Shown here: piece after piece, positions 1 to 57,700 of the stretch
Layout of the letters: every line of letters starts with the position of its first letter
How positions within the stretch are numbered: the first letter of the stretch is position 1
Assembly (NCBI GenBank): GCA_964544585.1
Contig: CAZJBV010000001.1
Coordinates: 119,717 to 183,716, forward strand
Direction: 5' to 3'
Length of the DNA stretch: 64,000 nucleotides
Source: an uncultured Gammaproteobacteria bacterium
Lineage (GTDB): Bacteria > Patescibacteriota > Microgenomatia > 2-02-FULL-39-11
The notes under the pieces: model-generated
What the model was told of the DNA's origin: nothing
The model's input: the letters and a program-made list of their open reading frames with translations, nothing else
The model's database searches: none
Translations under genes and position numbers: made by a program

Positions 1-75
1 AAATTTTTCGTGCTCGCGCGCTCCTCGCAGACTCGGGGGCATGACTGCGCGCGTAAAATTTGGGTTCGCCCTTTT
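1..75. repeat. GC-rich hairpin element, member A of a three-copy intergenic family (possibly truncated by the window edge)
   Basis: A GC-rich stretch in an AT-rich genome. Its right flank cgtaaaatttgggttc and left motif ttttcgtgctcg resemble the copies at 50040-50148 and 50959-51025. Confidence 0.5.
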
Positions 76-4950: not shown

Positions 4951-5577
4951 TTAATTTTTCAATAATTGATCTATTTTATACTCTATTTTTTTTTCTAGAT
5001 CAATTTTAATATTTACATCTGTCACTTTGTTGACGACTTCTTGAAGGAAGCCTTTTATAATCAGCTTTTCGGCAAGTTTTCTTTCAAGGCCTCGTGTGGC
5101 TAAGTAAAATATTTCTTCCTCATTTATTTTTCCGATTGTGGCGCCGTGAGTGCAACGGACGTCATTGGCGAGGATTTCCAATTTGGGCCTCGAGTCGGCC
5201 CAAGCACTTTTCCCTATTAGTAAATTTTGATTTTTTTGATAGGCGTTGCTTTTTTGGGCGTCTTTTTCGATTTTAATGAGTCCTTCGTATGCCAGTCTTG
5301 CTTCATCAAAGAGGACCGACTTAATAAGGAGATCGCTGACGCTTTCTTTTTTTATATGATCCTGGAATGTATACAGTTTAATTTGTTGTTTTCCGGAACC
5401 GATAATTGTTCCTAAAATCTGGACATTGGAATTTGAGCCATCTATGTAGATTTTAACAGCGCCTTCTTGATTGTTATTATCAGTTAAAATAATAAAAATA
5501 ATTTTATCCTCGCCGGATTTGACGTAAAGTTCTTCTTCTTTTTGCAGTCGGTCAATAATAGAAATAGAATTTTTCAT
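4951..5577 (-). CDS. sufD: SufD-like FeS assembly protein (short form)
   Basis: Its position between sufB and sufS fits sufD. It has a beta-helix-like C-terminal region with the SAWADSRPKLEI...DVRCTHGATIG motif that resembles the SufB/SufD family. The start is trimmed to MKNSISII. Confidence 0.55.
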   Translation of the reverse strand: MKNSISIIDRLQKEEELYVKSGEDKIIFIILTDNNNQEGAVKIYIDGSNSNVQILGTIIGSGKQQIKLYTFQDHIKKESVSDLLIKSVLFDEARLAYEGLIKIEKDAQKSNAYQKNQNLLIGKSAWADSRPKLEILANDVRCTHGATIGKINEEEIFYLATRGLERKLAEKLIIKGFLQEVVNKVTDVNIKIDLEKKIEYKIDQLLKN

Positions 5578-5705
5578 CAACCTACGCTGCCTTCCCCCGT
5601 ACAATGCTTTCCGTTCGCGAGGGCTACGTCCTCGCCTCACGGTGGCGCATATACGGGGCTTCGAGCCGCAAAGCGGCTCTCGCATTTCTAACCTACGCTC
5701 CCTTC
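5578..5705. repeat. GC-rich hairpin insert flanked by 17-bp direct repeats (aacctacgctgccttcc / aacctacgctcccttcc)
   Basis: The second direct repeat encodes the last codons and stop of sufB. The first copy sits immediately before the sufD ATG. The interior carries the hairpins gagccgctttgcggctc and gcgaggacgtagccctcgc. Confidence 0.55.
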
Positions 5706-8102
5706 CATTTCCAGTTGAATAAGTCTATTTAGTTCGACTGCGTATTCGAGGGGGAGTTGTTTGACGATGGGTTCTATAAATCCATTGACGACCATGGCTT
5801 CGGCGTCTGGTTTGTTGATACCGCGACTCATGAGGTAAAATAATTGGTCATCGCCAATCTTTGAGACTGTTGCTTCGTGTTCGATGCGACAATCATTGTG
5901 TTTTATATCCATTGTCGGATATGTATCTGATCTAGACTCATCATCTATCAACAAGGCGTCGCAGACGACTTTGGATTTGGCGCCAATTGCACTTTGAAAA
6001 ACCTGAAGAAGTCCTCTATATGATGTCCTTCCTCCACCGTGACTGACCGATTTGGAAGTAATCTTCGAAGAAGTATATGGAGCAAAGTGAATGGCTTTTC
6101 CGCCTGCATCCTGGTGCTGGCCGGGTCCGGCATAGGCAACTGATAGCACCTCTCCTCGAGCTCCTTTGCCCATTAAATAGACGCTGGGGTACTTCATAGT
6201 AAGCTTGGAATTGTGAACTAAAATACCATTTGCAATAAAATTCCCTTTATCAACTTCTATATCAAATGTCTCTTTTGATCCTTGGGGTACAATGCTATTT
6301 ACTCGGACAAACTGAATTGTTGAATCTTTTTTATCATCTCCAAAATATAAGAAATGATGTTTATAAACTTTTTCTTCTATACCAAGTGGTTTTCTCTCTC
6401 TCCTTGTCCAAAGCGAAATTTTCCTTGGAGAAAATTTATCGGTTATGTAACTTAGGTCTTTGACTTGTTGTAATAATTTCTTATTTACCGATGTTATAGA
6501 TATATTTCTATGATTATCACGTCTATATCCATCTGCATCGATATAACCCTCGATGAATGATGTTATTTGGGATTTTGGTAATGTGTAGATCCATTCAGGA
6601 ACTTCTTTGTCTTGCGCTTTTCCTTTGAATCCAAGCTTTACCAAAAAATCAACAAATTTTGTGGAAGCATAACGAACAATATTTCTTTTTATTTCGGGTT
6701 TAAGTCCAAAAAGCTTATTTATTGTTTCAATAACCTTTTTAAAGCTTTTATCACTTTGTGGAACAGCTATATATACTCTTGTTTTGTCCATACATCCATC
6801 ACCAATGTAAAAACCTAGAAGCCATAGCAATTCTTCGCTGCTTATTTCCGGATAGAAAAACTCCTTTTTACCACGTTTGGGGTTAAAATGTATGGGATAA
6901 TTTTTTCCTACCCATGGAAGTTTTCCTGATACTGCAATTAAATCTCCAACTTTTATTTTATCTAAAGGCATCCAATTGAAGTAAGAAATTTTTCCTTTCT
7001 TTTTTAAGACAAGAAAAGGATGATTTGCAGTTGCTTCTACTTCACGAAAATCTTCTGTTGTGATTTTGAAAACTGGAAGGGGGGGATTTTTAACTTTAGC
7101 TAACAATTTGGCTCTTGTTAAGGTAAATTCTGGAGTCATCGAGTATAAATAGTCGCCCGGTCGAATGTCTTTAATGGAAAGAACATGATCATTTGCTATT
7201 ATTTTCGCATCCTCTGTTAAACATCCTAAATTACCGTCGATCCACTCGCCAATTCCCTCTTCTTCGACTCGCATTCTTTTGGTGACGAGATTGTAAACAT
7301 TGGTCGACCAGTTTTGAATGGTGGTATATCTGACTCGTGCTCCTTTTTTGACAAAAATTTCAACAACAGCGGCGTGAAGTGAATCTGTGGTATAAACGGG
7401 AGCGGTGCATCCTTCGACATAATGAACGAAACTACCCTCGTCGGCGATTATTAATGTTCTTTCAAACTGACCCATATTGGCGGCGTTGATACGAAAATAA
7501 GCTTGTAGAGGAAGTTCCACATTGACACCTTTGGGAACGTATATAAATGATCCGCCACTCCAAGTAGCCGAATTTAAAGCGGCGAATTTATTGTCATGTG
7601 GTGGAATGATTGTGCTAAAATATTCTTTGACCAAATCCGGATACTCACGAAGTCCTGAGTCCATATCCAAGAATACTACTCCTTTTTTGCCGAGAGTTTT
7701 TTGGATGCTTTTATATACGACTTCTGACTCATATTGAGCTGAAACACCGCCAAGATATTTTTTTTCTGCTTCTGGAATGCCAATTCGGTCGTAGGTTCGG
7801 CGAATTTCAATAGGTAAATCCTTCCAACTTCTAGCTTTTTTTTCTGTGGGTTTTATATAGTAATAAATGTTGTCGAAATTGATTTTGGAAAGATCTCCGC
7901 CCCAAGCAGGGAGTGTTTTTTTATAAAAGATGTCTAGAGCATCATGGCGAAATTTTCTCATCCAATCCGGTTCATTTTTGTGGTATGAGATTTCATCTAT
8001 CACTAAATGAGAAAGTCCTTTTTTAGACTTGAATGAATAGCGTTCGGCCTCGTGAAAGCCTAGAGGGTAGGAATCGTTAATTGCTATTTGTGATGTGGGC
8101 AT
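5688..8102 (-). CDS. sufB: FeS cluster assembly protein SufB interrupted by an intein
   Basis: An 804-aa ORF. The exteins carry conserved SufB blocks (NWSTNVYNLVTKR, WIDGNLG | SKLTMKYPSVYLMG, GEVLSVAYAGPGQHQDAGGK). A 338-aa insertion begins with Cys and ends with HN, followed by Ser. Confidence 0.85.
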   Translation of the reverse strand: MPTSQIAINDSYPLGFHEAERYSFKSKKGLSHLVIDEISYHKNEPDWMRKFRHDALDIFYKKTLPAWGGDLSKINFDNIYYYIKPTEKKARSWKDLPIEIRRTYDRIGIPEAEKKYLGGVSAQYESEVVYKSIQKTLGKKGVVFLDMDSGLREYPDLVKEYFSTIIPPHDNKFAALNSATWSGGSFIYVPKGVNVELPLQAYFRINAANMGQFERTLIIADEGSFVHYVEGCTAPVYTTDSLHAAVVEIFVKKGARVRYTTIQNWSTNVYNLVTKRMRVEEEGIGEWIDGNLGCLTEDAKIIANDHVLSIKDIRPGDYLYSMTPEFTLTRAKLLAKVKNPPLPVFKITTEDFREVEATANHPFLVLKKKGKISYFNWMPLDKIKVGDLIAVSGKLPWVGKNYPIHFNPKRGKKEFFYPEISSEELLWLLGFYIGDGCMDKTRVYIAVPQSDKSFKKVIETINKLFGLKPEIKRNIVRYASTKFVDFLVKLGFKGKAQDKEVPEWIYTLPKSQITSFIEGYIDADGYRRDNHRNISITSVNKKLLQQVKDLSYITDKFSPRKISLWTRRERKPLGIEEKVYKHHFLYFGDDKKDSTIQFVRVNSIVPQGSKETFDIEVDKGNFIANGILVHNSKLTMKYPSVYLMGKGARGEVLSVAYAGPGQHQDAGGKAIHFAPYTSSKITSKSVSHGGGRTSYRGLLQVFQSAIGAKSKVVCDALLIDDESRSDTYPTMDIKHNDCRIEHEATVSKIGDDQLFYLMSRGINKPDAEAMVVNGFIEPIVKQLPLEYAVELNRLIQLEMEGSVG
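6210..7223 (-). mobile_element. SufB intein with LAGLIDADG homing endonuclease domain
   Basis: Starts at Cys (CLTEDAKII) and ends in VHN followed by the +1 Ser. Two LAGLIDADG-like blocks are present (LLWLLGFYIGDGC and FIEGYIDADGY). It is inserted at the conserved GNLG/S site of SufB. Confidence 0.8.
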
Positions 8103-8874
8103 AGCCTTTTTCCTCCAATTCTTGGGCTAATTTTGGTCCTCCGGTTTTGACTATTTTACCATTAATTAAAATGTGGACAATATTGGGAGTAATATATTTT
8201 AAAATTCTTTGGTAATGAGTGATCATTAGTACTCCTGTACCATTTTTTTTCAATATATTTATACCCTGGGCGACGATTTTGAGAGCGTCGATATCAAGGC
8301 CGGTGTCGATCTCGTCAAAAATGACAAACTTTGGTTTCAATACCAATGCCTGTAGCATCTCAAGCTTTTTTTTCTCTCCTCCGGAAAAACTTTCATTTAT
8401 AGAACGGCGTAAGAATTCGTGAGGGATATGAAGTAAATCAGCTTTTTTTGCCAATTCTTCGTTGAATTTCCAAACTGTTTGCAAGGCAGGATTAGCGATG
8501 GTCTTTGGTCTTTGGTCTTTGGTCTTTGGTCCATGGAGAGATTCAAATGCATTTTTTAATAAATTGGCAACGGTGACACCTGGGACAGGGATGGGGTTTT
8601 GGAATGCTAAGAACAAGCCAGCCCTGGCACGCTTATCTGGAGAAAGATTTCTCATGTCCGTCTTGTCAATTTGAAATTTGATCCCGATTGAATCGGGATG
8701 AAATTTATAGGAGGGGTGTCCCATGAGAGCCTGAGCAAGGGTTGACTTTCCAGAACCATTGGGACCCATCAGGGCATGGACCTCTCCAGACTTTATTTGT
8801 AGCGATATGCCTTTCAAAATCTCTTTTTTTTCTAAGTAAACATGAAGATTCTCAATAGTTAGAGTGTGCTTCAT
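8077..8874 (-). CDS. sufC: FeS assembly ATPase SufC
   Basis: Has the Walker A motif GPNGSGKST, the ABC signature LSGGEKKK and Walker B. Its ATG overlaps the upstream stop in an ATGA arrangement. It contains an in-frame heptamer repeat (PKTKDQRPKT). Confidence 0.85.
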   Translation of the reverse strand: MKHTLTIENLHVYLEKKEILKGISLQIKSGEVHALMGPNGSGKSTLAQALMGHPSYKFHPDSIGIKFQIDKTDMRNLSPDKRARAGLFLAFQNPIPVPGVTVANLLKNAFESLHGPKTKDQRPKTIANPALQTVWKFNEELAKKADLLHIPHEFLRRSINESFSGGEKKKLEMLQALVLKPKFVIFDEIDTGLDIDALKIVAQGINILKKNGTGVLMITHYQRILKYITPNIVHILINGKIVKTGGPKLAQELEEKGYAHITNSN

Positions 8875-9440
8875 ATCGGTAATGTTAAGTCGACGGAAGT
8901 AAAACTTTTCCCTCGGGTGGCCCAATCGACTTTTATTTCTCGCCTTCCTTTGGCATCGAGGAAATACAAAGCGCCATATTTTTTGCCGTATTCGTAAAGA
9001 CTCCTGGTGATTTTAACATCTGAAAGGCAATATTGGCAAAGAGCGTCCCACTCTCCTTTTTTGAAGTACTCAATGGCTTTTAGTCCATGACCCTGCTTTT
9101 TTGTTCCAATTGTGGCTTTCGCAAGATCATCGAGGGCAACTCTAAAGCCGAGAGCTTTTTGGGCATCTTCGATAATATCAAGAACGGGAAATTTGAAAAT
9201 ATTACCGAGATAGTAAGGGGCAAGAACTTCGAGATCAAATTTGCGAATATTGAATCCGACTAAAAGTGAAGCGTGCTCTAATTTTTTAAAGAGATAGATT
9301 AAATCTTTTTCCAGATATGTTTCAAACTTGTTTGTGGCATAATCATAAATTCCCACAACTGAAACTTTGAGTTTTCTGTGGTCGTAGCCTACATCGGTAA
9401 AGAGATTTTGTGTTTCTAAATCAAGAACTATTGGGTGCAT
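8871..9440 (-). CDS. DEDD-family 3'-5' exonuclease (DnaQ-like fold)
   Basis: Has the N-terminal Exo I motif VLDLETQ and length and pattern consistent with RNase T/oligoribonuclease-like exonucleases. Confidence 0.55.
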   Translation of the reverse strand: MHPIVLDLETQNLFTDVGYDHRKLKVSVVGIYDYATNKFETYLEKDLIYLFKKLEHASLLVGFNIRKFDLEVLAPYYLGNIFKFPVLDIIEDAQKALGFRVALDDLAKATIGTKKQGHGLKAIEYFKKGEWDALCQYCLSDVKITRSLYEYGKKYGALYFLDAKGRREIKVDWATRGKSFTSVDLTLPI

Positions 9441-21767: not shown

Positions 21768-21844
21768 TTTATAAAAATGGGTGGTGCATATTGCTTTTAC
21801 CGATGTGTCTAGCTTGTACACCCCGGGTGTGTGTATCACTTTTA

Positions 21845-27507: not shown

Positions 27508-28453
27508 CTCCATTTACCCAGGTATGATTATTAAAGACCCAGTTGATGAGATTTGCTGTTTCGCCGAAGCGGTCTTGACTTTTGAGAAGAACGACTAGAA
27601 TTGCGGTATTGTTTCTTTTGACTAGTGTCACAAGGCATTCTTCCGCATTTTCGGTAAAACCTGTTTTTATGCCGGCAACTCCGGGAATGCCTCCTAATAA
27701 TTGATTTACATTGTGAAGTTCATGAAAGTAAGTATATGAAGTATCCGAAACTGTGATGGAGCGGGTGGCGACAATTTTTCCGATATTTTTATTTTGAAGA
27801 GCCAATTTTGCCAGGCTCGCTAGCTCTTTTGCGGTGGTATAGTGATTTGTATCGTCAAAACCCATGGGGTTGGTGAAGCGGGTATTTATAAGGCTTAAAG
27901 TGGCGGCTTTTTGATTCATGGCTTCGATAAATTTGGTAATTCCGCCGGGGTAGTTTTCGGCAATTGTCAGGGAAGCGTCATTTGCCGAGGCAACCAGGAG
28001 TCCGTATAAAAGAGACTCGAAGGTGATTTTTTCACCGACTCTAAGACCCATCGAAGCCTCACGGGGGTCGATCTTATTGACAGTCAGGATGTCTTCTAGC
28101 TTAAAATAGTCAAAGGCTACAAGGGCGGTGACTATTTTGGTGGTGGAAGCCGGAGAAAGGCGAATGTCGGGATTTTTTTGATAGAGAATAGTACCCGATG
28201 GCAGGTCTAAAACGTATACTCCTTCGGCCGTAAGATAGGGGGCGGGAATATTTCTGGTGTTTTGGGGGTAGGGGGTGGGAGTGGCAGCGATTTTTATCTC
28301 TTCTGGTTGATATTGATCGTTTGAAATTGAGTATTCATATAACTTAAACCCTGGGAAAAGTGCCAAAAGAAAAGCAAAAAGGGCGATTTTAAGAGAAAGT
28401 AAAATATATCTTGAGTGAAAACTCTTGTCGGCTCTCTTTTTATTTTTTTTCAT
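27488..28453 (-). CDS. D-alanyl-D-alanine carboxypeptidase (S11, PBP5/6-like)
   Basis: Has the SxxK active site ASTTK, then SAN and KTG-like motifs, and an N-terminal TM anchor. Confidence 0.75.
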   Translation of the reverse strand: MKKNKKRADKSFHSRYILLSLKIALFAFLLALFPGFKLYEYSISNDQYQPEEIKIAATPTPYPQNTRNIPAPYLTAEGVYVLDLPSGTILYQKNPDIRLSPASTTKIVTALVAFDYFKLEDILTVNKIDPREASMGLRVGEKITFESLLYGLLVASANDASLTIAENYPGGITKFIEAMNQKAATLSLINTRFTNPMGFDDTNHYTTAKELASLAKLALQNKNIGKIVATRSITVSDTSYTYFHELHNVNQLLGGIPGVAGIKTGFTENAEECLVTLVKRNNTAILVVLLKSQDRFGETANLINWVFNNHTWVNGASSPVE

Positions 28454-29841
28454 CGCAATTTGATGCCTAATTCTTTTAACTGTTCATCATTAACTTTGCT
28501 GGGCGCATCCATGACAGAAATCTGGCCTCCAGCTGAAGCTGGGAAAGCCATGACTTCACGGACGCTTGGTTCACCTAAAACGGCCATGAGAAAGCGATCG
28601 ATTCCGGGGGCAATGCCGCCGTGAGGAGGAACCCCATATCTGAATGCAGCTAGCATGTGGGTGAACTGCTTTTTTTGGTCTTCTGTAAAACCAATAAGGG
28701 AAAATACTTTTTCCTGAATCTTGGGATCGTGGATTCTAATACTTCCTCCGCCGATTTCAAAACCATTGAGGACGAGGTCATGCTGGAGGCCACGGACTTT
28801 GAGGGGATCGGTATCCAGTAAGGGGATATCGTCAGAATGAGGGGCGGTAAACATGTGATGTGAAGGAGCAAACTTTGCTTGTCCTGAGCCGTAATAGAAA
28901 TCTTCTTTTGTTTGCTCCTTAAAAAGGGGAAAATCGATGGTCCAGGAAAAAGCTAGTTCGTTTGGATCACTTTTATTTTTTCTTAGATCGGGTTTGTCTG
29001 TGCCATATTTTTTTTGGACCTCGTTATGAGAAAGTCGCGGAAAAGGAATTTGGGTAATAGCTTTTTGGGGAAAATATTTTTTAACTATGCCTATATAAAG
29101 CTCCTCGGTTAAATTTAATATGTCTTCTTGGGTAACAAAAGACATTTCCAAATCGAGTTGAGTAAATTCTCCATAGGCTCTGTCTTTTCGCGGATCTTCG
29201 TCTCGGAAACACCGGGCTATTTGGAAATATCGCTCGAAACCGGCAACCATGAGAAGCTGTTTGTATTGTTGGGGGGATTGGGGCAGGGCGTAGAATTTAC
29301 CATTTTGGAGTCTGGATGGAACCAGAAAATCGCGCGCACCTTCTGGTGTAGTCTTGGTCAAAATGGGCGTTTCGATTTCGACAAAGTCTCTTTCGAGGAG
29401 AAAACTTCTGATAAAGGAAACTACTTTTGAGCGAATTCTCATATTTTTTGCCATTCGGGGTCGGCGAAGATCGAGGTAGCGATACTTCATCCGTAATTCT
29501 TCGTCGATATTGTAGCCATCATTATCAATCGGAAAAGGCAGATCTATTGCATGGGAGATAATTTCTATTTTTGAGGCTTCGACTTCGACTGAGCCTGTCG
29601 CTATTTTAGGATTAACCAGTTTTTCGGGGCGTTTTTTAACTGTGCCTATGATTTTTACTACGTCTTCGTTTCTAATTGAGCCTATTAAATCTTGCCTGAC
29701 AACGACCTGGATAATGCCGGTTCTGTCTCTAAGATCAATGAAGACTATTTTGCCGTGATCTCTTCTTGTTTCTACCCAACCTAAAAGCATGATTTCCTCA
29801 CCAATTTTTTTTAGTGTTTCGGCAGTGAGTGTTCTTGACAT
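28450..29841 (-). CDS. aspS: aspartate--tRNA ligase (short, GAD-less form; possibly non-discriminating)
   Basis: An anticodon-binding OB fold (GWVETRRDHGKIVFIDLRDRTGIIQVV) and class II motifs (FRDED, GGGSIRIHD). Confidence 0.8.
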   Translation of the reverse strand: MSRTLTAETLKKIGEEIMLLGWVETRRDHGKIVFIDLRDRTGIIQVVVRQDLIGSIRNEDVVKIIGTVKKRPEKLVNPKIATGSVEVEASKIEIISHAIDLPFPIDNDGYNIDEELRMKYRYLDLRRPRMAKNMRIRSKVVSFIRSFLLERDFVEIETPILTKTTPEGARDFLVPSRLQNGKFYALPQSPQQYKQLLMVAGFERYFQIARCFRDEDPRKDRAYGEFTQLDLEMSFVTQEDILNLTEELYIGIVKKYFPQKAITQIPFPRLSHNEVQKKYGTDKPDLRKNKSDPNELAFSWTIDFPLFKEQTKEDFYYGSGQAKFAPSHHMFTAPHSDDIPLLDTDPLKVRGLQHDLVLNGFEIGGGSIRIHDPKIQEKVFSLIGFTEDQKKQFTHMLAAFRYGVPPHGGIAPGIDRFLMAVLGEPSVREVMAFPASAGGQISVMDAPSKVNDEQLKELGIKLR

Positions 29842-29867: not shown

Positions 29868-31091
29868 TTAATGCGTTGAAGGTCTGACCCTGATATACTC
29901 ATTATACTTTTCTAATGCTAGGCCAAGAAGTTTTATAGCTCGTTTGAGTTTTTTTTCTTCCAAGACATAGGCGATGCGGATCTCCTGACGGCCTAAACCA
30001 GGGGTGGCATAAAATCCACCTGCTGGAGAAATCATGACCGTTTCTTTGTTGTGAGAGAAATCGGTAAGGAGAAAGCGGGCAAAATCATCGGAATTGTCAA
30101 CCGGGATTTCGACGATTATATAAAAGGCTCCAAATGAAGGAATGAATTTGGCTCCGTCTATTTTTCGCAATTCTTTAATTACCACATTTCTTCTACTAGC
30201 ATAGATTCTCCGTACCTTTTCGACATATTTTTGGTGATTTTTGAGTAAATTTATGACTGCAAGCTGTTCGACCGTGGCAACGGAGAGTCTGCCCTGGGCA
30301 AAGCGAAGTATACTACTCATTACTTCTTTGTTTTTGCTGACCACACAACCAATACGAGCTCCACAGGCATTGAACCTTTTGGAGACACTATCGACTATAA
30401 TGAGGCGGTCTTTCAATTGGTTAAATCTGGTGAGAGGGAAAACTTTTTGGCCCTCAAAAACTATCTCCTGATATGTCTCGTCGGAAATAATAAAGAGATT
30501 GTGCGTAACTGCAACCTCTGCTATCATTTCGATTTCCTTTTTGGTGTATACCGTTCCGGTGGGATTGTTGGGGTTGCAAATTATTATTCCTTTGGTTTTC
30601 TGGTTAATTGCCTTTTGGATTGTTTGCCTGTCAGGAAGGTGAAAACCCTCCTTTATGTGTGTCGTGACGGGTTTTAAATTGATGTTGCCCATTCCTGCAG
30701 AGATGGCATAGCTGGTATAAAATGGTTCAAAAACTAACAATTCGTCACCGGGATCTGCCACGGCAAAAAAGGCAAACATCAGTCCCTCCCCTCCTCCCGA
30801 AGTAACAATAATGTCTTCGGGTGCATAGTCGAAACCTTTATTCTGATAAAAGGTGCTCCATGCCAATCTTGTCTCTGGCATGCCGGTGGAGGGGGCATAT
30901 TCCAGAATTTTTCTTTTTAAGTGGCGAAATTCCCGCAGAATTTCGTCGGGAGTGGGAATATCGGGTTGTCCGATATTGACATGGTAAACTTTTATGCCTT
31001 TTTCTTTAGCAATATCTGCTAGTGGCACAAGTTTTCTGACTGCTGAGGCAGGTGTATTTATGGCGCGCTTTGAGACAGATAAGTTGGTCAT
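29868..31091 (-). CDS. class I/II PLP-dependent aminotransferase (aspartate aminotransferase-like)
   Basis: Has the N.GQPD motif, the SVSKRFNACGARIG lysine motif, and typical fold length. Confidence 0.8.
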   Translation of the reverse strand: MTNLSVSKRAINTPASAVRKLVPLADIAKEKGIKVYHVNIGQPDIPTPDEILREFRHLKRKILEYAPSTGMPETRLAWSTFYQNKGFDYAPEDIIVTSGGGEGLMFAFFAVADPGDELLVFEPFYTSYAISAGMGNINLKPVTTHIKEGFHLPDRQTIQKAINQKTKGIIICNPNNPTGTVYTKKEIEMIAEVAVTHNLFIISDETYQEIVFEGQKVFPLTRFNQLKDRLIIVDSVSKRFNACGARIGCVVSKNKEVMSSILRFAQGRLSVATVEQLAVINLLKNHQKYVEKVRRIYASRRNVVIKELRKIDGAKFIPSFGAFYIIVEIPVDNSDDFARFLLTDFSHNKETVMISPAGGFYATPGLGRQEIRIAYVLEEKKLKRAIKLLGLALEKYNEYIRVRPSTH

Positions 31092-31092
31092 T

Positions 31093-32592
31093 TTAGCCTA
31101 GACTCCTTCTTAGTTTTCCGGATGCGGTAATTAGGTTGGCAATATTATTTCTTTTTTCTATCCGCTTGTATATTTTATTTGTCAATAATTTGTGTTCATG
31201 ATGGATTGACCTTTTTGGTCCAAGTTCTATATTAAGTGTAGTTTCTATGCCTTCGATGTCTTCTTTTAATTCTTTTTCTAAGCCGATTTTTTGGCCAATT
31301 CTGGCGATATTTTCCTTGTTAAGAAAATAGCCTGCCATTATCATATCATTTTTTAGGTGTATGTAATGCTTTAAGACTATATCCATTAAACCCTTATTTT
31401 TAAGTCTTTTTAGTATCCTGCCAGTGCCGATTAATTCAGGGGGTAAACCTATTGAATAAAGGCTGCCTGTAAAGGGAATTGCGCGGGGAAGTTTTACTTT
31501 TCCTACACCCCGAGAATAACCAAATAGGCCAATATGCTGTAATCTTTCTCTTCTTTTGGGAAATGTTTTACTTATTTTATTGATAAGAGGAGCTAGAAGC
31601 TCGACGGAATTTCGATAGGGCAATTCTGCCTCGGGAATAATTTTTTTAATTATTTCCTTGTCCTTTGGCGAAACTTTTTGTGGGGTTTGGGGCAATACTT
31701 TTTTTAGTCGGGCAACAGCCTTTTTTACACTCTCTTTGGGATAGTCATAGCGGAAGGCGCTTTGAATAGTAAATGTGGCCACGCCTTTGTATTCCGAAAT
31801 TACATTGTCTAAGTTTTCCGGATTCATGCTGCCGCGGAAAGGCAAAGAACCTGTGCCAAGTAGCGGATACAGGGCGACACCTGACTTATCTTGAAATTTT
31901 TGATATTCGGAGAGAGCAACTTTGGCTGCCAAGACCGTGGGGACGATGCCGGAATTTAATGCAGGGTCACTGCGGGCTATGTAAGGACGGATATATTCGG
32001 GATGTCGTCGGAATTTATTTTTATACAATTTAAGGTATCTTCTGAGAATATCAGCTGAATTAATAATGATAGAAACCTGTTCAAATAAGGGGATAACTTC
32101 GAGTTTTTGGATCGAGTGGTCCATTTTTAAAAGAGGGTTTTTAACAGAAACCAGTTCGGCAAAAGCTTCCTGAATATTGAATATATCTTCGGCTGTTTCG
32201 GTCAAGGGTAGGATGGCCTCAAAAATGGGAGGAGAGCTAAATCCTAGACTTTTGGCGTGCTGACTTGAGGTGATGGCCACCATAAAGGCGCGGGCGAGGC
32301 GAAATTGAGATTCGACGCGGGGGTTTGGGATCCGGAATGTAATAAACTTTTCTTTACCGATGGGATGATCTGAAAAATAATTATAGAAATTATGGAGGAG
32401 ACGATCATATACTTCCTCGTCGACAAATTTTCCTTCCCAATCCCAGTTGTATTCGTCGATATCAAATTCTTTGAAGCAGAGAAAACTCTCTTTTAACTCG
32501 GCGAGGGTGGAAACGACGGGCCGCGGATACCAGGAAAGCTTCCGGGCATTGTCCGGATGCTGAGTTGCCATGGAGGTGGGGATAATTCTCAT
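31093..32592 (-). CDS. archaeal-type phosphoenolpyruvate carboxylase (PEPcase_2)
   Basis: About 500 aa starting MRIIPTSMATQHPDN, which is diagnostic of the archaeal-type PEPC family rather than the 900-aa bacterial Ppc. Confidence 0.7.
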   Translation of the reverse strand: MRIIPTSMATQHPDNARKLSWYPRPVVSTLAELKESFLCFKEFDIDEYNWDWEGKFVDEEVYDRLLHNFYNYFSDHPIGKEKFITFRIPNPRVESQFRLARAFMVAITSSQHAKSLGFSSPPIFEAILPLTETAEDIFNIQEAFAELVSVKNPLLKMDHSIQKLEVIPLFEQVSIIINSADILRRYLKLYKNKFRRHPEYIRPYIARSDPALNSGIVPTVLAAKVALSEYQKFQDKSGVALYPLLGTGSLPFRGSMNPENLDNVISEYKGVATFTIQSAFRYDYPKESVKKAVARLKKVLPQTPQKVSPKDKEIIKKIIPEAELPYRNSVELLAPLINKISKTFPKRRERLQHIGLFGYSRGVGKVKLPRAIPFTGSLYSIGLPPELIGTGRILKRLKNKGLMDIVLKHYIHLKNDMIMAGYFLNKENIARIGQKIGLEKELKEDIEGIETTLNIELGPKRSIHHEHKLLTNKIYKRIEKRNNIANLITASGKLRRSLG

Positions 32593-32957
32593 AGTAATCT
32601 AGCCATAATCCCGTACAAAGCTTACTTGCTCGCATGGTTTACATCCATGCCTCGCGAGGGCGCTTATACGGGATTGATCGGCTGGTAAACTCTCCGCTAG
32701 ATGGCGGATCGTTAACCAGCCATCAAAAAATCACCTTTCTGAAGGGTGATATAAATCACGGTGCCACCTTGCTTTTCCGCCAGAAATGGGCGGACTTATT
32801 TATTGCTATTACGGGCTTGCCCGGCAAGGTCTACTTATAAAGATATGAGGATAAATGATAAACGATATGAAGAAAATTATTTCTTATCTTTTATCTTGTA
32901 TCTCTTATCTTATATTTTCTTCTTGCGGCTCGGGTGTGTCTGGCACCGTCATCGCCT

Positions 32958-34598
32958 TTATTCATTTGGGATATTAACATCTTTTATATTTAATTGCAAA
33001 CTGGTTTTTCCATTCCAATGATTTTCTTCCAGGGAATAAGCGATATCCATATTTTTTTTCAATTGTTTAAATCTGTCTCCTAGGCCAAAGCCTATACCAT
33101 CAATAATGTCATTTTTGTTGGCGAATTGAACTTTTAAATGTTGTCCATAACTCCCTACTTTTTTGGCATTGATGATAGTTACCCTTTCTGTGGCAAAGAC
33201 TGGTTCGGGATTTCCTATACCGTAGGGAGATAATTTACTAACTACCGTTAACAAATCTTTGCCTATAAGGTCAAAAATGAGCGGACAGTCGATAGAAAGG
33301 GATTTTATCAGAAGATTTGGGTCGATTGTTGACTCTGCTATTTGATAAAGTCTTTTGATTAGAGAGGGGATTTTGTTTTTCTCGACCGTGAATCCGCCTG
33401 CCATCGGATGTCCGCCGACATTCTCTAAAAGATTGTCTATCGACCTTACCATTTCGGTAATATTTACTCCGGGAATAGACCTCATTGAAGCTTTTGCCAG
33501 AGGCCCAGTTTCGGAAATGACTATGGCCGGTTTATAAAAAATTTCGGCGAGTTTTCCGGCAACAAGCCCAATGATGCCTGGATTGTATTGTCCACTAATG
33601 GCAATAATTTTTTCATTATTTGCGGAATTTTTATATTGGTCTATTGCCTCTTTTAGAGCTATCTCTGAGGCTTGTTGGCGCGATTTATTTGTTTGATTTA
33701 AGAGAAAAGCCAATTTTTCGGCACGATCAATATCTTTGGTACACATGAGGCGGAGTGAGTCGAGGGCATGAGCAATTCTGCCCATGGCATTTATTCTCGG
33801 GCCGAGAATAAAGCCTATATCAAAGACGCCAATTTTTTCCTTTTTAATTCCTGCCTGTTTGATGAGGGCATTGAGGCCTATTCTTTTGGTTTTTCTTAGT
33901 TCATCCAGTCCATGCACGACTAGCGATCTGCCTACTCCCTGAAGGGGCATGCAGTCGGAAACTGTAGCAAGGGCACAGAGATCTAGGTTGGCGGCGCTTT
34001 CTGGCTTTTTTATTTTAGTTAGGTTATTTATTACATACCAGGCAATTGAGGTGGCGCAAATTTTGGTGGTATGAACGATTTTGGCGTCTATAATATTGCC
34101 TTTGGTATGGTGGTCAAGGACGATGGTTTCTATCCCGCAATCTTTTGCATACTGGATTTGTGATTGGGCAGATATGCCATTGTCAATGGTGATAATAAGA
34201 GATGGATTATATGCTTTTTTAATATTATCGATGCCTATTTTGCCTAGACCATATCCTTCTTTTTTCCTTTCTGGGACGTAGGGCATGACTTTGAGGCCAT
34301 ACTCGTATAGACCCTCCCAAAGGATGGTACCGCCTAAGATTCCGTCTACATCATAATCTGTGTAGATGACGATAGATTCTTTGTCTCTTTTTGCTTTATT
34401 TATTCTTTCTAAAACAATTTTGAGGTCTTTTTTATCTATATTGAGATCTTTTAGTGAAATGTCGGCAGGGTGAGACGGGTTCTGGAAAAATTTTTTTGCA
34501 TCTTCTGTTGCAAGTCCTCTATTTTGATAGAGAGTATTTTCTATGTCTTTAATACTTTTATGAACAGTACTGGAAATTTTTTTCCAAACTTGAGCCAT
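32958..34598 (-). CDS. recJ: single-stranded-DNA-specific exonuclease RecJ
   Basis: Has the DHH motifs (DYDVDG, DHH), a DHHA1 domain and a C-terminal OB region. The start is trimmed to MAQVWKK to avoid overlap with divergent cca. Confidence 0.8.
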   Translation of the reverse strand: MAQVWKKISSTVHKSIKDIENTLYQNRGLATEDAKKFFQNPSHPADISLKDLNIDKKDLKIVLERINKAKRDKESIVIYTDYDVDGILGGTILWEGLYEYGLKVMPYVPERKKEGYGLGKIGIDNIKKAYNPSLIITIDNGISAQSQIQYAKDCGIETIVLDHHTKGNIIDAKIVHTTKICATSIAWYVINNLTKIKKPESAANLDLCALATVSDCMPLQGVGRSLVVHGLDELRKTKRIGLNALIKQAGIKKEKIGVFDIGFILGPRINAMGRIAHALDSLRLMCTKDIDRAEKLAFLLNQTNKSRQQASEIALKEAIDQYKNSANNEKIIAISGQYNPGIIGLVAGKLAEIFYKPAIVISETGPLAKASMRSIPGVNITEMVRSIDNLLENVGGHPMAGGFTVEKNKIPSLIKRLYQIAESTIDPNLLIKSLSIDCPLIFDLIGKDLLTVVSKLSPYGIGNPEPVFATERVTIINAKKVGSYGQHLKVQFANKNDIIDGIGFGLGDRFKQLKKNMDIAYSLEENHWNGKTSLQLNIKDVNIPNE

Positions 34599-47661: not shown

Positions 47662-48894
47662 TTAATTTAAATTTCCTTTAGCAAGATTGGGTTTGTTGAT
47701 GAGGTTTTCGAGGATTTGCCAGCGGGATTTTTTTTCGCTGTGAGGAATGTCATCTTTGAAGGCTTTGTGGGCGGCGGTTGCGGGGCGGTCTGAATACATG
47801 GAAATGTAAGCTTTATAAAAACCGACTTTTTTGGCAAGGTCAACTGTATCTAAAAATTCCTCTTCTGATTCGCCGCAGAAACCAACAATAATATCAGTAC
47901 TCAATTTTAAATTTTCAATTTTAAATTTTAAATTTTTTACAAGATCTAAATATTGTTCCCTAGTATACCAGCGGTTCATGCGTTTTAAGACAGAATTGCT
48001 TCCTGACTGGACCGGCAAATGAATTGATCTTGTCACTTTTGGGTTGTGGGCGATAACGTCTATCAATACTTCGGAAAAATCCCAGGGATTTGAAGACATA
48101 AAATCTATTTCCCCAATTCCCTCAATTTTACAGATATCTTTTAACAGATAAGGAAAAAGAGTTGGGATGCGGTATCGGTTCAGGTGTTTAACATAAATTG
48201 GTTTTATTTGGGAATTTTCAATTTTAAATTTTAAATTTTCATTCAATTTTAAATTTTTAATTTTTGAATTATCAAAATATGTGTTTTTAATATCTCTCAT
48301 TACATGAATATTTTCGGAACCTAAAATTAGATCTGCACCGTATGAATTGACGTTCATACCAAGGAGGGTAATCTTTTTGTAGCCGTGGTTGGCAAGTTCT
48401 TGACATTCTTTTATAACTTCATTGTATGGCCTACTTATTTCGCGGCCGCGAGTAAAAGGGACGACGCAAAAAGTACAAAAATTATTGCAGCCGTTTGAAA
48501 TTGGGACCCAGGCATTTAGGGCATTTGTGCGAAGGGGTGCATGGTCGAAGCCTACTTCTTCAATGGGCAAAAACTCGTCAACTTCGGGCATTCTTATTTT
48601 TAGGAGTTTTAAAAATTTGCCTGTTTTATCTCTTGCGGCCATTCCGACCATACAGCCGGTAACGACAATTTTTTCGGGCATGCCTGTAGTACGCTTTTTT
48701 TTGGTCAAATTGTTGACAAGACCATAGACGCGGTTTTCCGCCATTTCCTTGACCATGCAGGTATTGATGATGATATGATTTGCGGCATCAATATTTTTTG
48801 CTTTTTCCATGCCGCGGGCTTCAGGCATGGCGGCAATACGCTCTGAATCCGAAACATTCTGCTGGCAGCCAAAAGTTTGGATAAAGTATTTCAT
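47662..48894 (-). CDS. miaB: tRNA methylthiotransferase MiaB-like (radical SAM)
   Basis: An N-terminal MTTase domain (FIQTFGCQQN...C), the radical SAM motif CNNFCTFC, and a TRAM domain. The start is trimmed to MKYFIQTFGC. Two in-frame AATTTTA-type repeat tracts are present. Confidence 0.8.
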   Translation of the reverse strand: MKYFIQTFGCQQNVSDSERIAAMPEARGMEKAKNIDAANHIIINTCMVKEMAENRVYGLVNNLTKKKRTTGMPEKIVVTGCMVGMAARDKTGKFLKLLKIRMPEVDEFLPIEEVGFDHAPLRTNALNAWVPISNGCNNFCTFCVVPFTRGREISRPYNEVIKECQELANHGYKKITLLGMNVNSYGADLILGSENIHVMRDIKNTYFDNSKIKNLKLNENLKFKIENSQIKPIYVKHLNRYRIPTLFPYLLKDICKIEGIGEIDFMSSNPWDFSEVLIDVIAHNPKVTRSIHLPVQSGSNSVLKRMNRWYTREQYLDLVKNLKFKIENLKLSTDIIVGFCGESEEEFLDTVDLAKKVGFYKAYISMYSDRPATAAHKAFKDDIPHSEKKSRWQILENLINKPNLAKGNLN

Positions 48895-50039: not shown

Positions 50040-50148
50040 AGTTTTATGGCTCGACCCCGTTTTTTTGAGGTGCTCGACTGCCCTCCGCCAGCTGGCGGAT
50101 TGCGGGGCCCGCCGCTGCGCTCCTAAAAAAAGGGGTCTTCGCCATTGA
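50040..50148. repeat. GC-rich hairpin element, member C of the intergenic family
   Basis: ttttgaggtgctcg ... ccgccagctggcgg (a palindrome) ... cgctgcgctcctaaaaaaa, with outer inverted flanks gaccccgttttttt/aaaaaaaggggtc. Confidence 0.55.
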
Positions 50149-50958: not shown

Positions 50959-51025
50959 CCTAAATTTTGAGGTGCTCGTCTCTCCCGTAAACAGGAGCCC
51001 TTCGCTGCGCTCCTAAAATTTGGGT
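50959..51025. repeat. GC-rich hairpin element, member B of the intergenic family
   Basis: ccctaaattttgaggtgctcg ... cgctgcgctcctaaaatttgggttc. It shares both conserved flanks with member C and the right flank with member A. Confidence 0.55.
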
Positions 51026-55808: not shown

Positions 55809-57410
55809 TTACATAGATAATGCTAGAATACAATAGTTCAAAACGGGGTGTAGGTCATCGGTAGACCGCGCGCATGGGGTGCGTGAAGTAGTGGGTTCAA
55901 TTCCCGCCACCCCGACAGATAGAGAGTCCGCGAAGCGGACGGAAGGTTGGGTCTGCGCGCCCCCACTCGCGCAGACTTCTGCAAAGCCCTGATTATATTC
56001 TGGGACAAGCCGCCGATCAGTTAAAAAGAAGTTCGAGCCGACAGTTTTTGCCATGATCGACAGATCATGGGATGTATTTTTTGCGCGCGCGATTTTTGCG
56101 CACGATAGTGCGCTACCAATGAAGTTTTTGAAAGGTTCGAGCCAACTCGAACCATTTTGTTTTATTTGTTCTAATTCTTCACTTATTTTTAATTTTTCTT
56201 CGAAAAATTCGTTCTTTTTTGTCTTGTAAATTTCGGGGTCAATAATTCCTTCTAAGTAACCATCTAAGAGTTTATTAAGTTTTACATCAATATCTTTTAA
56301 TTGCTGCTCTAATTTTAGGGTATTATCGTGAATGGATACAGTCTCTAATTTCTCATCCTCATCTAGCCATTTATACCAATTACTAGCCCATTTTTCTGGT
56401 AATGCAACATCATCAATGGCTTTTCTAAATTGTTGTTCAAGCTCTGGTTCTGAAATGTAAGGTTGATTGCAGGGTTTAATTTTTTTAGTACATCTATAGT
56501 AAACATATTCAACAGTTCTATTTGTTCCTTTGTAGAATTTTTTATGAGATTCAGCGGTAATAGTTGCTCCACACTCTCCACATCTCATTAAACCCATAAA
56601 GGGGAAATTATATCTTCTTTTTTTATGTCTATCCCTAAACTTTAATTCTTGCTGGACTTTTTGGAATAACTCTTTACTTATAATAGTTTTATGAGTACCC
56701 TCGTGATATTCTCCGTTGTAATACATTATGCCTATGTAAAATCTGTCTGATAAAATCTGGCGGATTTGATTTATATGTAGGGGTTTATCAATTTTTCTTT
56801 TAAGGTCAAACTTATATAGAAAGGTCGCAATATCAGTAAAAGTTTTGTCGCCTTCGCTAAATAATTCAAAAGCCTTCTTAATTGCTTTTAGTTTTTCTCC
56901 ATCTACATCTATCCCACGGGTTTTAGGATTATTAATATACCCATAAGGAGCTTTGCCAGGATAAACACCATTGCGGATTTTTTGTCTTAACCCACGTCTT
57001 ACATTTTCAGATAAATTATCCACATAATATTTACTCTGACCAAAGGCAATATTTAACATAAATTTTCCCTGGGGAGTATTTTCAAACCAAGAGGTCGGAA
57101 ATTTTAAGTCCTTCAATTTCCCGGTATCTAAAAGGTAAATTATTTTCCCACCATCTATTGAGTTACGAGCTAATCTATCAGGATGCCACGCAATAATCCC
57201 TTGTATATGACCTTTTTCTATTTTCTTCAAAACTTCCGCAAATTTTTCTCTGCCCGGAATCTTGGCAGTTTTTTCTTCTTCAACAAATTCGGTAATTTCC
57301 AAATGCTCTCTTTTAGCGTATTCTTTTAGCTCGGCAATTTGAGCAGAGATAGATAAAATCTGTTTATCTTTTTCTTCTCTGGATTTTCTACAGTAAGCAA
57401 TGTATTTCAT
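55809..57410 (-). CDS. large serine recombinase (resolvase domain + recombinase domain + zinc ribbon)
   Basis: An N-terminal YCRKSREE...SISAQ catalytic-serine motif, a recombinase domain, and CGECG...YYRC. The last ~90 codons read through IR1-L and antisense tRNA-Pro (GIEPTTS), so the true C-terminus is uncertain. Confidence 0.8.
   Translation of the reverse strand: MKYIAYCRKSREEKDKQILSISAQIAELKEYAKREHLEITEFVEEEKTAKIPGREKFAEVLKKIEKGHIQGIIAWHPDRLARNSIDGGKIIYLLDTGKLKDLKFPTSWFENTPQGKFMLNIAFGQSKYYVDNLSENVRRGLRQKIRNGVYPGKAPYGYINNPKTRGIDVDGEKLKAIKKAFELFSEGDKTFTDIATFLYKFDLKRKIDKPLHINQIRQILSDRFYIGIMYYNGEYHEGTHKTIISKELFQKVQQELKFRDRHKKRRYNFPFMGLMRCGECGATITAESHKKFYKGTNRTVEYVYYRCTKKIKPCNQPYISEPELEQQFRKAIDDVALPEKWASNWYKWLDEDEKLETVSIHDNTLKLEQQLKDIDVKLNKLLDGYLEGIIDPEIYKTKKNEFFEEKLKISEELEQIKQNGSSWLEPFKNFIGSALSCAKIARAKNTSHDLSIMAKTVGSNFFLTDRRLVPEYNQGFAEVCASGGAQTQPSVRFADSLSVGVAGIEPTTSRTPCARSTDDLHPVLNYCILALSM
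55844..55915 (+). tRNA. tRNA-Pro (anticodon GGG)
   Basis: Cloverleaf: acceptor cggggtg/caccccg, D stem ggtc/gacc, anticodon stem cgcgc/gcgtg with loop aTGGGgt, T arm gtggg-ttcaatt-cccgc, discriminator A. Confidence 0.75.
55913..56015. repeat. IR1-L: 103-bp perfect inverted copy of 57519-57621
   Basis: Exact reverse complement of IR1-R. It starts 3 nt inside the 3' end of tRNA-Pro. It contains the internal hairpin gtctgcgcg-agtggggg-cgcgcagac. Confidence 0.9.
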
Positions 57411-57518
57411 TTTTTATTTTCCTCTTATAAGAAGAGTTCTTTTGCGAGCGAAGCGAGCAGTCCCGATGATATATCGGGACAAAATTTTTGCGTTCCTCGT
57501 TTTTTGTTCTTTTTAACC

Positions 57519-57700
57519 GGCGGCTTGTCCCAGAATATAATCAGGGCTTTGCAGAAGTCTGCGCGAGTGGGGGCGCGCAGACCCAACCTTCCGTCCGCTT
57601 CGCGGACTCTCTATCTGTCGACCTTTTTAAAAAAATCCGAACTCGCTTTAAGTCGAATCGGTAGGCGCGCTACGCGCGCCATCTTATCCGCTCGGCCTTC
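57519..57700. repeat. IR1-R (57519-57621) fused to IR2-L (57615-57700): the junction segment of two inverted-repeat-bounded modules
   Basis: The left 103 nt are the exact reverse complement of 55913-56015. The right 86 nt are the exact reverse complement of 62493-62578. Confidence 0.9.

Follow-up and report, generated by a model that had tools for sequence, protein, structure and literature searches.

A 94-nt structured insert with 17-nt flanking repeats between sufB and sufD of a Candidatus Gottesmanbacteria genome: a candidate small insertion element

Between sufB and sufD in a 64-kb stretch of DNA (from contig CAZJBV010000001.1 of GCA_964544585.1; the whole stretch is here called the window) lies a GC-rich, non-coding element of 94 nt, flanked by two copies of a 17-nt direct repeat. 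A near-identical element is found in a distant relative, bordered there by duplicated bases that are that lineage's own, which points to a small mobile element of an uncatalogued kind. On balance we think it probable, though well short of secure, that this is a small non-autonomous insertion element whose arrival produced a 17-bp duplication of its target. The case for its mobility comes from comparisons, which cover two lineages and two loci. In the small, tightly packed genomes of the Candidate Phyla Radiation (CPR, or Patescibacteria), neither mobile elements nor non-coding RNAs are well catalogued. The present case shows how so small an element can slip harmlessly into an essential operon whose genes overlap: the duplication restores one gene's end as well as the next gene's ribosome-binding site.

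The insert, its repeats and its fold

The SufD protein places the genome of the window in Candidatus Gottesmanbacteria (CPR/Patescibacteria). Its suf genes all lie on the minus strand, and after sufD the gene order continues with a Rieske protein, sufS and sufU. The identities given to sufB and sufD in a preliminary description of this DNA, made from the sequence alone, stand: SufB contains an intein (the same sufB gene in contig L001 matches Pfam Intein_splicing, LAGLIDADG_3 and SUFBD_core), and SufD matches SUFBD_core and is named SufD family protein by NCBI. The parts of the locus are as follows.

8077-8925, minus strand: sufC (open reading frame list)
5688-8102, minus strand: sufB, 804 aa, with an intein carrying a LAGLIDADG domain; stop codon TAG at 5690-5688 (open reading frame list)
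5690-5706, minus strand: copy A of the 17-nt direct repeat; coding strand GGAAGGGAGCGTAGGTT, plus strand AACCTACGCTCCCTTCC
5596-5689, minus strand: inserted element, 94 nt, non-coding (empty sites in L002, L006 and L014; the L003 copy; fold)
5663-5679, minus strand: hairpin 1, a perfect 7-bp stem, GAGCCGC-UUU-GCGGCUC
5596-5658, minus strand: hairpin 2 (H2), 63 nt, 21-bp imperfect (covariation with a second copy; 93.5 bits with covariance model R2)
5579-5595, minus strand: copy B of the 17-nt direct repeat; coding strand GGAAGGCAGCGTAGGTT, plus strand AACCTACGCTGCCTTCC (empty-site comparison)
4951-5577, minus strand: sufD, 208 aa; start codon ATG at 5577-5575 (Pfam SUFBD_core)

From the TAG of sufB to the ATG of sufD the spacer measures 110 nt, and on the coding strand its 5' and 3' parts, which have the same GAAG in common, read:

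GAA ATG [copy A]AG AAATGCGA GAGCCGC-TTT-GCGGCTC GAAG
GAAG CCCCGTATATGCGCCACCGTGAGGCGAGGACGTAGCCCTCGCGAACGGAAAGCATTGTACGGG [copy B]G ATG AAA AAT

The two copies of the repeat match at 16 of 17 positions, with a single mismatch (g/c), and start 111 nt apart. Copy A, in codons G GAA GGG AGC GTA GGT T, starts with the last base of a Met codon, runs through the final five codons of sufB (E G S V G) and closes with the T of the stop; copy B, G GAA GGC AGC GTA GGT T, is followed by G and the sufD ATG, giving TGATG. The preliminary description had reported this repeat with a second variable position, t or c, which is T in both copies; its coordinates shift by one and the genes lie on the minus strand. 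Where it had one copy encoding the last five codons of sufB together with the stop, the five codons hold but the AG of the stop comes from the insert, whose first two bases complete TAG. Likewise, a single G stands between copy B and the start codon that it was said to abut.

Such a repeat is not expected by chance. Pairs of 17-mers with at most one mismatch and a spacing of 30-300 nt number three in the 64-kb window and never arise in 20 first-order Markov randomisations, so the sufB-sufD repeat is above chance. As for the other two pairs, that at 21768 was set aside, as it lies within coding sequence and flanks no insert, and that at 47917 looks AT-rich and of low complexity, judged from its sequence. 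Nor is the locus an assembly artefact, because its sequence is identical in GCA_016186845.1 and a 244-aa open reading frame that reads through the element is recorded on four contigs.

The interior, first described as about 90 bp of GC-rich sequence with two perfect hairpins, comes to 94 nt; its GC content is 62%, where the window has 39.2%. A 90-nt frame placed over it has 65.6% GC and is one of four that tie for second highest in the window. Its minimum free energy fold is at -47.2 kcal/mol (z = -5.4 against dinucleotide shuffles). Of the two hairpins only the first is perfect, and its closing pair is G-U in the L003 copy. H2 is imperfect: its tip is a perfect 6-bp stem (GCGAGG/CCUCGC), its 3x2 internal loop (GAG/GA) is conserved, GUA occurs within its 7-nt loop, and its 3' end lies 18 nt before the sufD ATG. 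The two strands of the element fold about equally well, and energy gives no choice between them.

The element resembles no catalogued RNA in the collections that we searched. With E values up to 10, Rfam 15 returned at best 12-15.5 bits for the element, against thresholds of 37.8-70 (E of at least 0.5), and at gathering level it found two tRNAs in the whole window and nothing at the element. ARAGORN found no tRNA or tmRNA there, no terminator-like site was seen in 5300-6000, and promoter-like matches fall outside the element. A 15-nt inverted repeat outside the direct repeats (5562-5576 / 5716-5730) was considered as a pairing partner and attributed to chance, because it is unconserved in L003 and lies within conserved NRLIQ codons.

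The element has no open reading frame of its own. Public protein sets nevertheless contain a SufD version of 244 aa (P0125; 4951-5685, minus strand) that begins at an ATG at 5685 inside the element, so that its first 36 residues are translated insert. This extension is probably a by-product of a GC-rich, stop-free insert and a mis-called start codon, because the N-termini of homologues all align at MKNS... The consequence for annotation is that sufD comes out 36 codons longer with some gene callers, which read through the element.

Empty sites, filled sites and a second copy

We collected SufD homologues, fetched their contigs and compared the sufB/sufD junctions. Two close relatives have no spacer and overlapping genes: L006 reads ...GAA GGC TCA ATC GGC TGATG AAA AAC (junction GGCTGATGAAAAAC), and L002/L015 reads ...GAA GGA AGT GTT GGATGA AAA AAC, an ATGA overlap (junction GGATGAAAAAAC). 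The more distant L014 also lacks a spacer, its genes overlapping by 8 nt. The window's junction at copy B (GGTTGATGAAAAAT; GGT TGATG AAA AAT) closely resembles those of L006 and L002, although only the tail TGATGAAAAA is common base for base, and because the overlap architecture matches, copy B plus ATG can be read as the intact ancestral junction. Judged by this comparison, the ribosome-binding region of sufD survives in copy B, which together with the G-ATG after it also makes up the ancestral TGATG stop/start overlap. The overlaps in L006, L002/L015 and L014 bear out the earlier supposition that sufB and sufD formerly overlapped here.

A third close relative (L003, L016, L017, L018 and L019, a lineage drawn from the four metagenome assemblies ANAN16, ERZ27254745, ERZ978281 and JGI 3300025308) carries the same insert at the same position. 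Its filled site reads:

ATG[GAAGGATCTGTAGGTT]AGAAAT...GTACGGG[GGAAGGATCTGTAGGTT]AGAAATTAAAC...ATG

Here the insert is flanked on both sides by GGAAGGATCTGTAGGTT, where the window has GGAAGG(G/C)AGCGTAGGTT; the repeat has the codons GGA TCT in place of the window's GGG/GGC AGC. Between the two carrier lineages the Ser codon differs at every position, and within each lineage it is the same in both copies. Thus, the duplication derives from the target rather than from the element, because the duplicated bases are each lineage's own codons. The flanking repeats match at 16/17 positions in the window and at 17/17 in L003 (23/23 with the next 6 nt), and the downstream repeat of L003 is followed by UAG and a further spacer of 33 nt before sufD. 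An insert shared by L003 but flanked by its own codons upholds the proposal of a small element inserted with a target-site duplication, and is the opposite of a spacer conserved among relatives without repeat structure, the finding that had been named as counting against that proposal.

Across Gottesmanbacteria the sufB/sufD junction is variable, with overlap in some lineages and unrelated, hairpin-bearing spacers of 46-170 nt in others:

L011, 1155-1200: unrelated junction spacer
L013, 1093-1200: unrelated junction spacer
L020, 305-474: unrelated junction spacer
L021, 600-663: unrelated junction spacer

These four spacers are unrelated to the element and have no flanking repeats; those of L011 and L013 both contain GCRAAGCTAATTCCAC with a CCAC..GGTGG hairpin after it. 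In the L003 lineage, a spacer of 263 nt follows the Rieske gene (L016, 5294-5556) and contains the GC-rich hairpins CCCGC-CTCA-GCGGG and CCGCC...GGCGG, and the sufS region is called as two open reading frames (202 aa and 185 aa), unlike that of the window.

How old is the insert? The window and L003 copies are 95.8% identical (91/95), and in the alignment of the two loci the element is the best-conserved stretch, at 87-93% in 60-nt frames, compared with 72-83% for the sufB C-terminus and 52-85% for sufD. Over the last 150 codons of sufB, in the highly conserved C-terminus, third positions are identical between the carriers at a fraction of 0.47, no better than in other pairs: synonymous sites are saturated. 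A neighbour-joining tree of 672 aa (SufB exteins, SufD and Rieske) unites the four closest lineages in a 100% clade, within which the carriers are sisters in only 4.7% of bootstraps. Because a near-identical insert is set against saturated synonymous sites and non-sister carriers, an ancient insertion drifting neutrally is excluded on these alignments. What is left would be either a young element with its duplications in both lineages, that is, mobility, or extreme constraint with concerted repeats. Hitch-hiking with the SufB intein was considered and rejected: the inteins of the carriers sit at different SufB sites (...GNLG|C...VHN|SKLT in the window, sufB 5688-8102; ...HYVEG|C... in the L003 lineage, L016 1730-4192) and are unalignable at the DNA level. 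The SufB proteins of L002 and L006 contain no intein.

With a covariance model built from both suf copies (R1), a second site in the window scored 41.2 bits (E = 7e-08): minus strand, 32610-32678. The match corresponds to H2 only, lies 27 kb from the suf element and is 72% identical to the suf H2. Its score of 83.2 bits with the R2 model is not independent, as this copy is itself in the R2 training alignment.

32610-32673, minus strand: second, diverged H2 copy (R1 match, covariation)
32674-32726, minus strand: left part of the second copy, a CCGC-CAUCUA-GCGG hairpin inside a GGCUGGU/ACCAGCC stem

Five of the 21 H2 pairs have changed on both sides with pairing kept, for example AUGC/GCAU to AAGC/GCUU and GCGAGG/CCUCGC to GCAUGG/CCAUGC, and the GAG/GA internal loop and the GUA of the 7-nt loop are kept as well. 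In the comparison of the H2 copies 96.8% of cells are paired, a value equalled by 1 of 500 shuffles and far above that of slid controls. We therefore read the long hairpin as one kept by compensatory substitutions in a second, older copy. Full-length alignment suggests that the left part of this copy is homologous too, with a common ...GGTT|A left junction. Because H2 tolerates about 28% change, the near-identity of the suf copies is better explained by a recent common origin. A purely local duplication, which the preliminary description had offered as an alternative, does not hold: the interior is unrelated to neighbouring sequence and has a relative 27 kb away. H2 would be a new structured RNA motif, backed by compensatory changes and searchable in other CPR genomes.

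The second H2 copy ends 17 nt before the ATG of a gene for an archaeal-type phosphoenolpyruvate (PEP) carboxylase (31093-32592), on the sense strand, and sits between the terminator of a T-box-like leader and the start codon. About 117 nt separate the U-run of that terminator from the PEP carboxylase start, and this stretch looks inserted. In the T-box-like leader itself (32739-32961, minus strand; 44.9 bits, E = 1e-08, under the Rfam gathering score of 93), Stem I is very short, a long AU-rich stretch is inserted and the terminator is clear. The leader is followed on the same strand by the PEP carboxylase gene and by those at 29868-31091 and 28450-29841, which encode a class I/II aminotransferase and a class II tRNA synthetase of the Asp/Asn/Lys type. 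Apparently one operon, this run of genes looks like a unit for the supply and charging of aspartate.

Mobility and its alternatives

We propose that the element, one of a family that some Candidatus Gottesmanbacteria carry, inserted at the compact junction of sufB and sufD, with its TGATG overlap, and in doing so duplicated the 17 bp directly upstream of the sufD start codon. The upstream copy keeps the last five codons of sufB, with the AG of the element supplying a new stop (T+AG), and the downstream copy keeps the ribosome-binding region of sufD and the old junction. By preserving both genes, the duplication makes the insertion harmless. Both carrier lineages would have gained the element separately and recently, through an enzyme acting in trans whose cuts in the two strands lie 17 bp apart, with a preference for a site that ends in (T)AGGTT.

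Lying in sense orientation inside the suf operon, the element is presumably transcribed in the suf mRNA. There it would separate the translation of sufD from the termination of sufB, with a possible loss of termination-reinitiation coupling, and the very stable hairpin that it leaves 5' of sufD, 18 nt before the start codon, could act as a determinant of processing or stability. Recombination between the 17-nt repeats would excise the element precisely.

Several observations weigh against an insertion element. Its ends, AGAAATGCGAGA... and ...GCATTGTACGGG, are not complementary, and inverted repeats are internal only. Two insertions at the same nucleotide imply strong target specificity, yet the target of the second copy differs. 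That copy has a candidate degenerate repeat upstream, TTGATGGCTGGTTAACG (32710-32726), formed by the 17 nt that come after the U-run of the T-box terminator, which matches ATTATGGCTAGATTACT (32593-32609, before the ATG) at 11 of 17 positions; this could be a decayed duplication, but with a shuffle p of 0.07 it is not significant alone. In L003 the downstream repeat is followed by AGAAAT, the same 6 nt with which the element begins. A fixed 17-bp duplication would make this a coincidence; gene conversion or a template switch would fit it better.

Copy number and enzymology add to these doubts. Only two copies, one full and one diverged, and only two insertion sites are known from 64 kb plus 10 kb of the genome. 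Exact 19-20-mers searched in GTDB species genomes gave a single chance match, in a terminator-like hairpin of Alloprevotella, and in JGI metagenomes only the contig already known, although scans with exact words are blind to copies as diverged as the second H2. Pfam scans of 45 open reading frames found no transposase in the window. Its sole recombinase is a large serine recombinase near tRNA-Pro, and enzymes of this type do not make such duplications.

Other searches for copies of the interior, which the preliminary description had suggested looking for elsewhere in the genome, turned up a single copy in the window, diverged and partial; public collections, scanned at the sensitivity of exact words, gave none. 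The remainder of the window, a further 10 kb beyond its start, 21 kb from the L002 lineage and the other sufB/sufD junction types contained no further copy. Within the window, blastn-short returned only fragments of 10-14 nt, two of which (about 32610-32672) proved to be part of the second copy once the covariance model was used. IMG/VR gave nothing, or 17-mer chance matches that do not score with the models, and blastn against phage and plasmid collections gave no match. Six-frame peptides of the element had no match in a protein database, a weak negative because cluster representatives were searched and the 244-aa frame through the element is hidden under a 208-aa representative. Neither TnpA, TnpB, a REP-associated tyrosine transposase (RAYT; Y1 transposase) nor an IS1202-like transposase was seen in the window.

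The serine recombinase locus has features of its own. Its gene (Resolvase, Recombinase and Zn_ribbon_recom domains; region 55809-57620) is for the most part bracketed by a perfect 103-nt inverted repeat (55913-56015 / 57518-57620), which abuts tRNA-Pro (55844-55916) and overlaps its 3' end by four bases. Inversion of the segment between these repeats would swap the coding end for the C-terminus of the recombinase. Beside it lie a gene for a HindIII-like restriction enzyme and a methylase fused to LexA/S24 domains. The window also contains a second, unrelated family of small GC-rich palindromes, with long-range stems GGCGAA.CCC(A/T)nTTTT...AAAA(A/T)nGGGT..GCC and three copies in about 74 kb:

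50040-50148, 50959-51025, and window 1-60 running into L022 7020-7110: copies of the second palindromic family, situated between two ABC-2 permeases, between an ABC ATPase and a permease, and between the pyruvate:ferredoxin oxidoreductase (PFOR) beta subunit and lon

Which other explanations could account for the insert? The first is that it is an old, vertically inherited, cis-acting suf RNA, such as a hairpin for processing, stability or translational control, which purifying selection has kept nearly frozen. A single insertion in the common ancestor of the four lineages would have been followed by precise loss, through the repeats, in some of them, with the repeats kept alike by gene conversion or slipped-strand repair. 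The compensatory changes of H2 fit such an RNA, and the placing of both H2 copies, on the sense strand and 17-18 nt ahead of a start codon, would suggest a function in translation initiation. Direct repeats that enclose a hairpin readily undergo precise deletion, a possible origin of the empty sites; the AGAAAT of L003 would be the outcome of a 23-nt conversion tract from copy A to copy B; and the public scans gave no other copies. However, an identity of 95.8% that takes in loops, linkers and hairpin 1 is hard to square with saturated synonymous sites, and a second H2 only 72% identical shows that the structure does not require the suf sequence. Non-sister carriers demand at least one or two precise losses. 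The L011/L013 pair, at a similar SufD distance (73%), keeps an inherited junction spacer that is only partly alignable. Moreover, efficient RecA-dependent exchange usually needs roughly 20-30 bp, and 17 nt is below that length. For these reasons we consider a vertically inherited RNA unlikely, though less so than any other alternative.

A bolder version of the proposed mobility would make the element one of an undescribed, CPR-specific class of mobile hairpins, without inverted ends, cut with a 17-bp stagger and inserting within the 17 nt or so just ahead of start codons, with duplication of the ribosome-binding region. Elements of this class could settle harmlessly even where essential genes overlap, and would leave H2 17-18 nt from the start, where it may have been co-opted for translation or mRNA stability. 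We offer this as a speculation, and a rather doubtful one.

Alternatively, the insert may have arisen in a one-off accident of replication or repair (template switching or microhomology-mediated insertion of DNA copied from elsewhere), and then have spread between lineages by recombination of incoming suf DNA, with GGAAGG and GTAGGTT as the microhomology, being neither a transposable element nor a selected RNA. Fork-stalling and template-switch events do yield insertions flanked by short duplications, and GGAAGG and GTAGGTT are the only bases common to the ends of the duplicated segment and conserved in both lineages. Recurrence at the same site would need no site-specific enzyme, and the AGAAAT of L003 would also be explained. 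Yet transfer by double crossover in long flanking homology is far likelier, and would import donor flanks, whereas the flanks are host-specific up to the element; and the second H2 copy, with its compensatory changes at another locus, is left unexplained. We regard such an accident as quite improbable. Finally, a translational bypass cassette like that of T4 gene 60 (take-off at the sufB Gly GGU, a skip of 94 nt, landing on GUA-GGU of copy B, termination at UGA and restart at the overlapping AUG, restoring sufB-sufD coupling) finds some support in the UAG that comes directly after the Gly take-off codon, in the strong structure of the gap and in an identical landing context, but it would leave the SufB protein unchanged, rescue no frame (a stop follows the landing site, UGA in the window and UAG in L003) and restore no coupling across the 33-nt spacer of L003, its gap is about twice that of gene 60, and the second H2 copy lies in a 5' leader with no upstream frame to hop from; it is very improbable indeed.

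Insertion of a mobile element thus remains our preferred explanation. If the element is mobile, it points to an enzyme that makes 17-bp staggered cuts with a high site preference. The element also separates cistrons that are translationally coupled in relatives, and may change the stoichiometry of SufB and SufD.

Comparison with known elements

Among small non-autonomous insertion elements, the suf element would be atypical in its 17-bp duplication, its lack of inverted ends and its apparent site specificity. Like MITEs (transposable elements of the miniature inverted-repeat kind, such as Correia, ERIC/IRU, RUP and Nezha), it is about 100 nt long, non-coding, strongly self-folding and presumably co-transcribed within an operon, and it shares with them a direct target duplication and presence or absence at orthologous sites. 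It differs from MITEs in having no terminal inverted repeats, a duplication of 17 bp where 2-9 bp is typical, two copies in about 74 kb and no related autonomous insertion sequence identified.

Duplications of this length do occur. The ISTde1 subgroup of the IS1202 family generates direct repeats of 15-17 bp (doi 10.1101/2022.12.17.520857), a range that includes the duplication at sufB/sufD. These insertion sequences encode a transposase and have imperfect terminal inverted repeats, whereas the 94-nt element has neither, and by analogy the likeness shows only that 17-bp staggered cuts exist in bacteria.

Other hairpin-bearing elements share its form more than its mode of insertion. Repetitive extragenic palindromes (REPs) and the mosaic elements built from them (BIMEs) are, like the element, GC-rich imperfect palindromes between genes of an operon with compensatory stems, and REPs are supposed to have a role in mRNA stability. 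However, REPs are 20-40 nt long, occur in tens to hundreds of copies, are associated with RAYTs and make no target duplication, in contrast to the 94 nt, the 63-nt hairpin, the two copies and the duplication seen here. The palindrome-associated elements (PATEs) derived from IS200/IS605 have subterminal hairpins and insert 3' of a short target without duplicating it; the suf element has two hairpins but a 17-bp duplication.

With Tn7 at attTn7 and with homing elements, the suf element shares a recurrent, precise site at the 3' end of a conserved essential gene, an intact host gene and a patchy distribution. Tn7, unlike it, is kilobases long and makes 5-bp duplications, and homing elements (inteins and group I introns) make no duplication and carry or need a homing endonuclease. 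The gap of T4 gene 60, the mitochondrial 'byp' elements and GC-cluster elements are alike in being GC-rich structured inserts in AT-rich genomes, with matching codons on the two sides and a stop right after the upstream one. The gene 60 and 'byp' inserts interrupt a reading frame and need bypass, whereas the suf element lies after the last codon of sufB and needs none.

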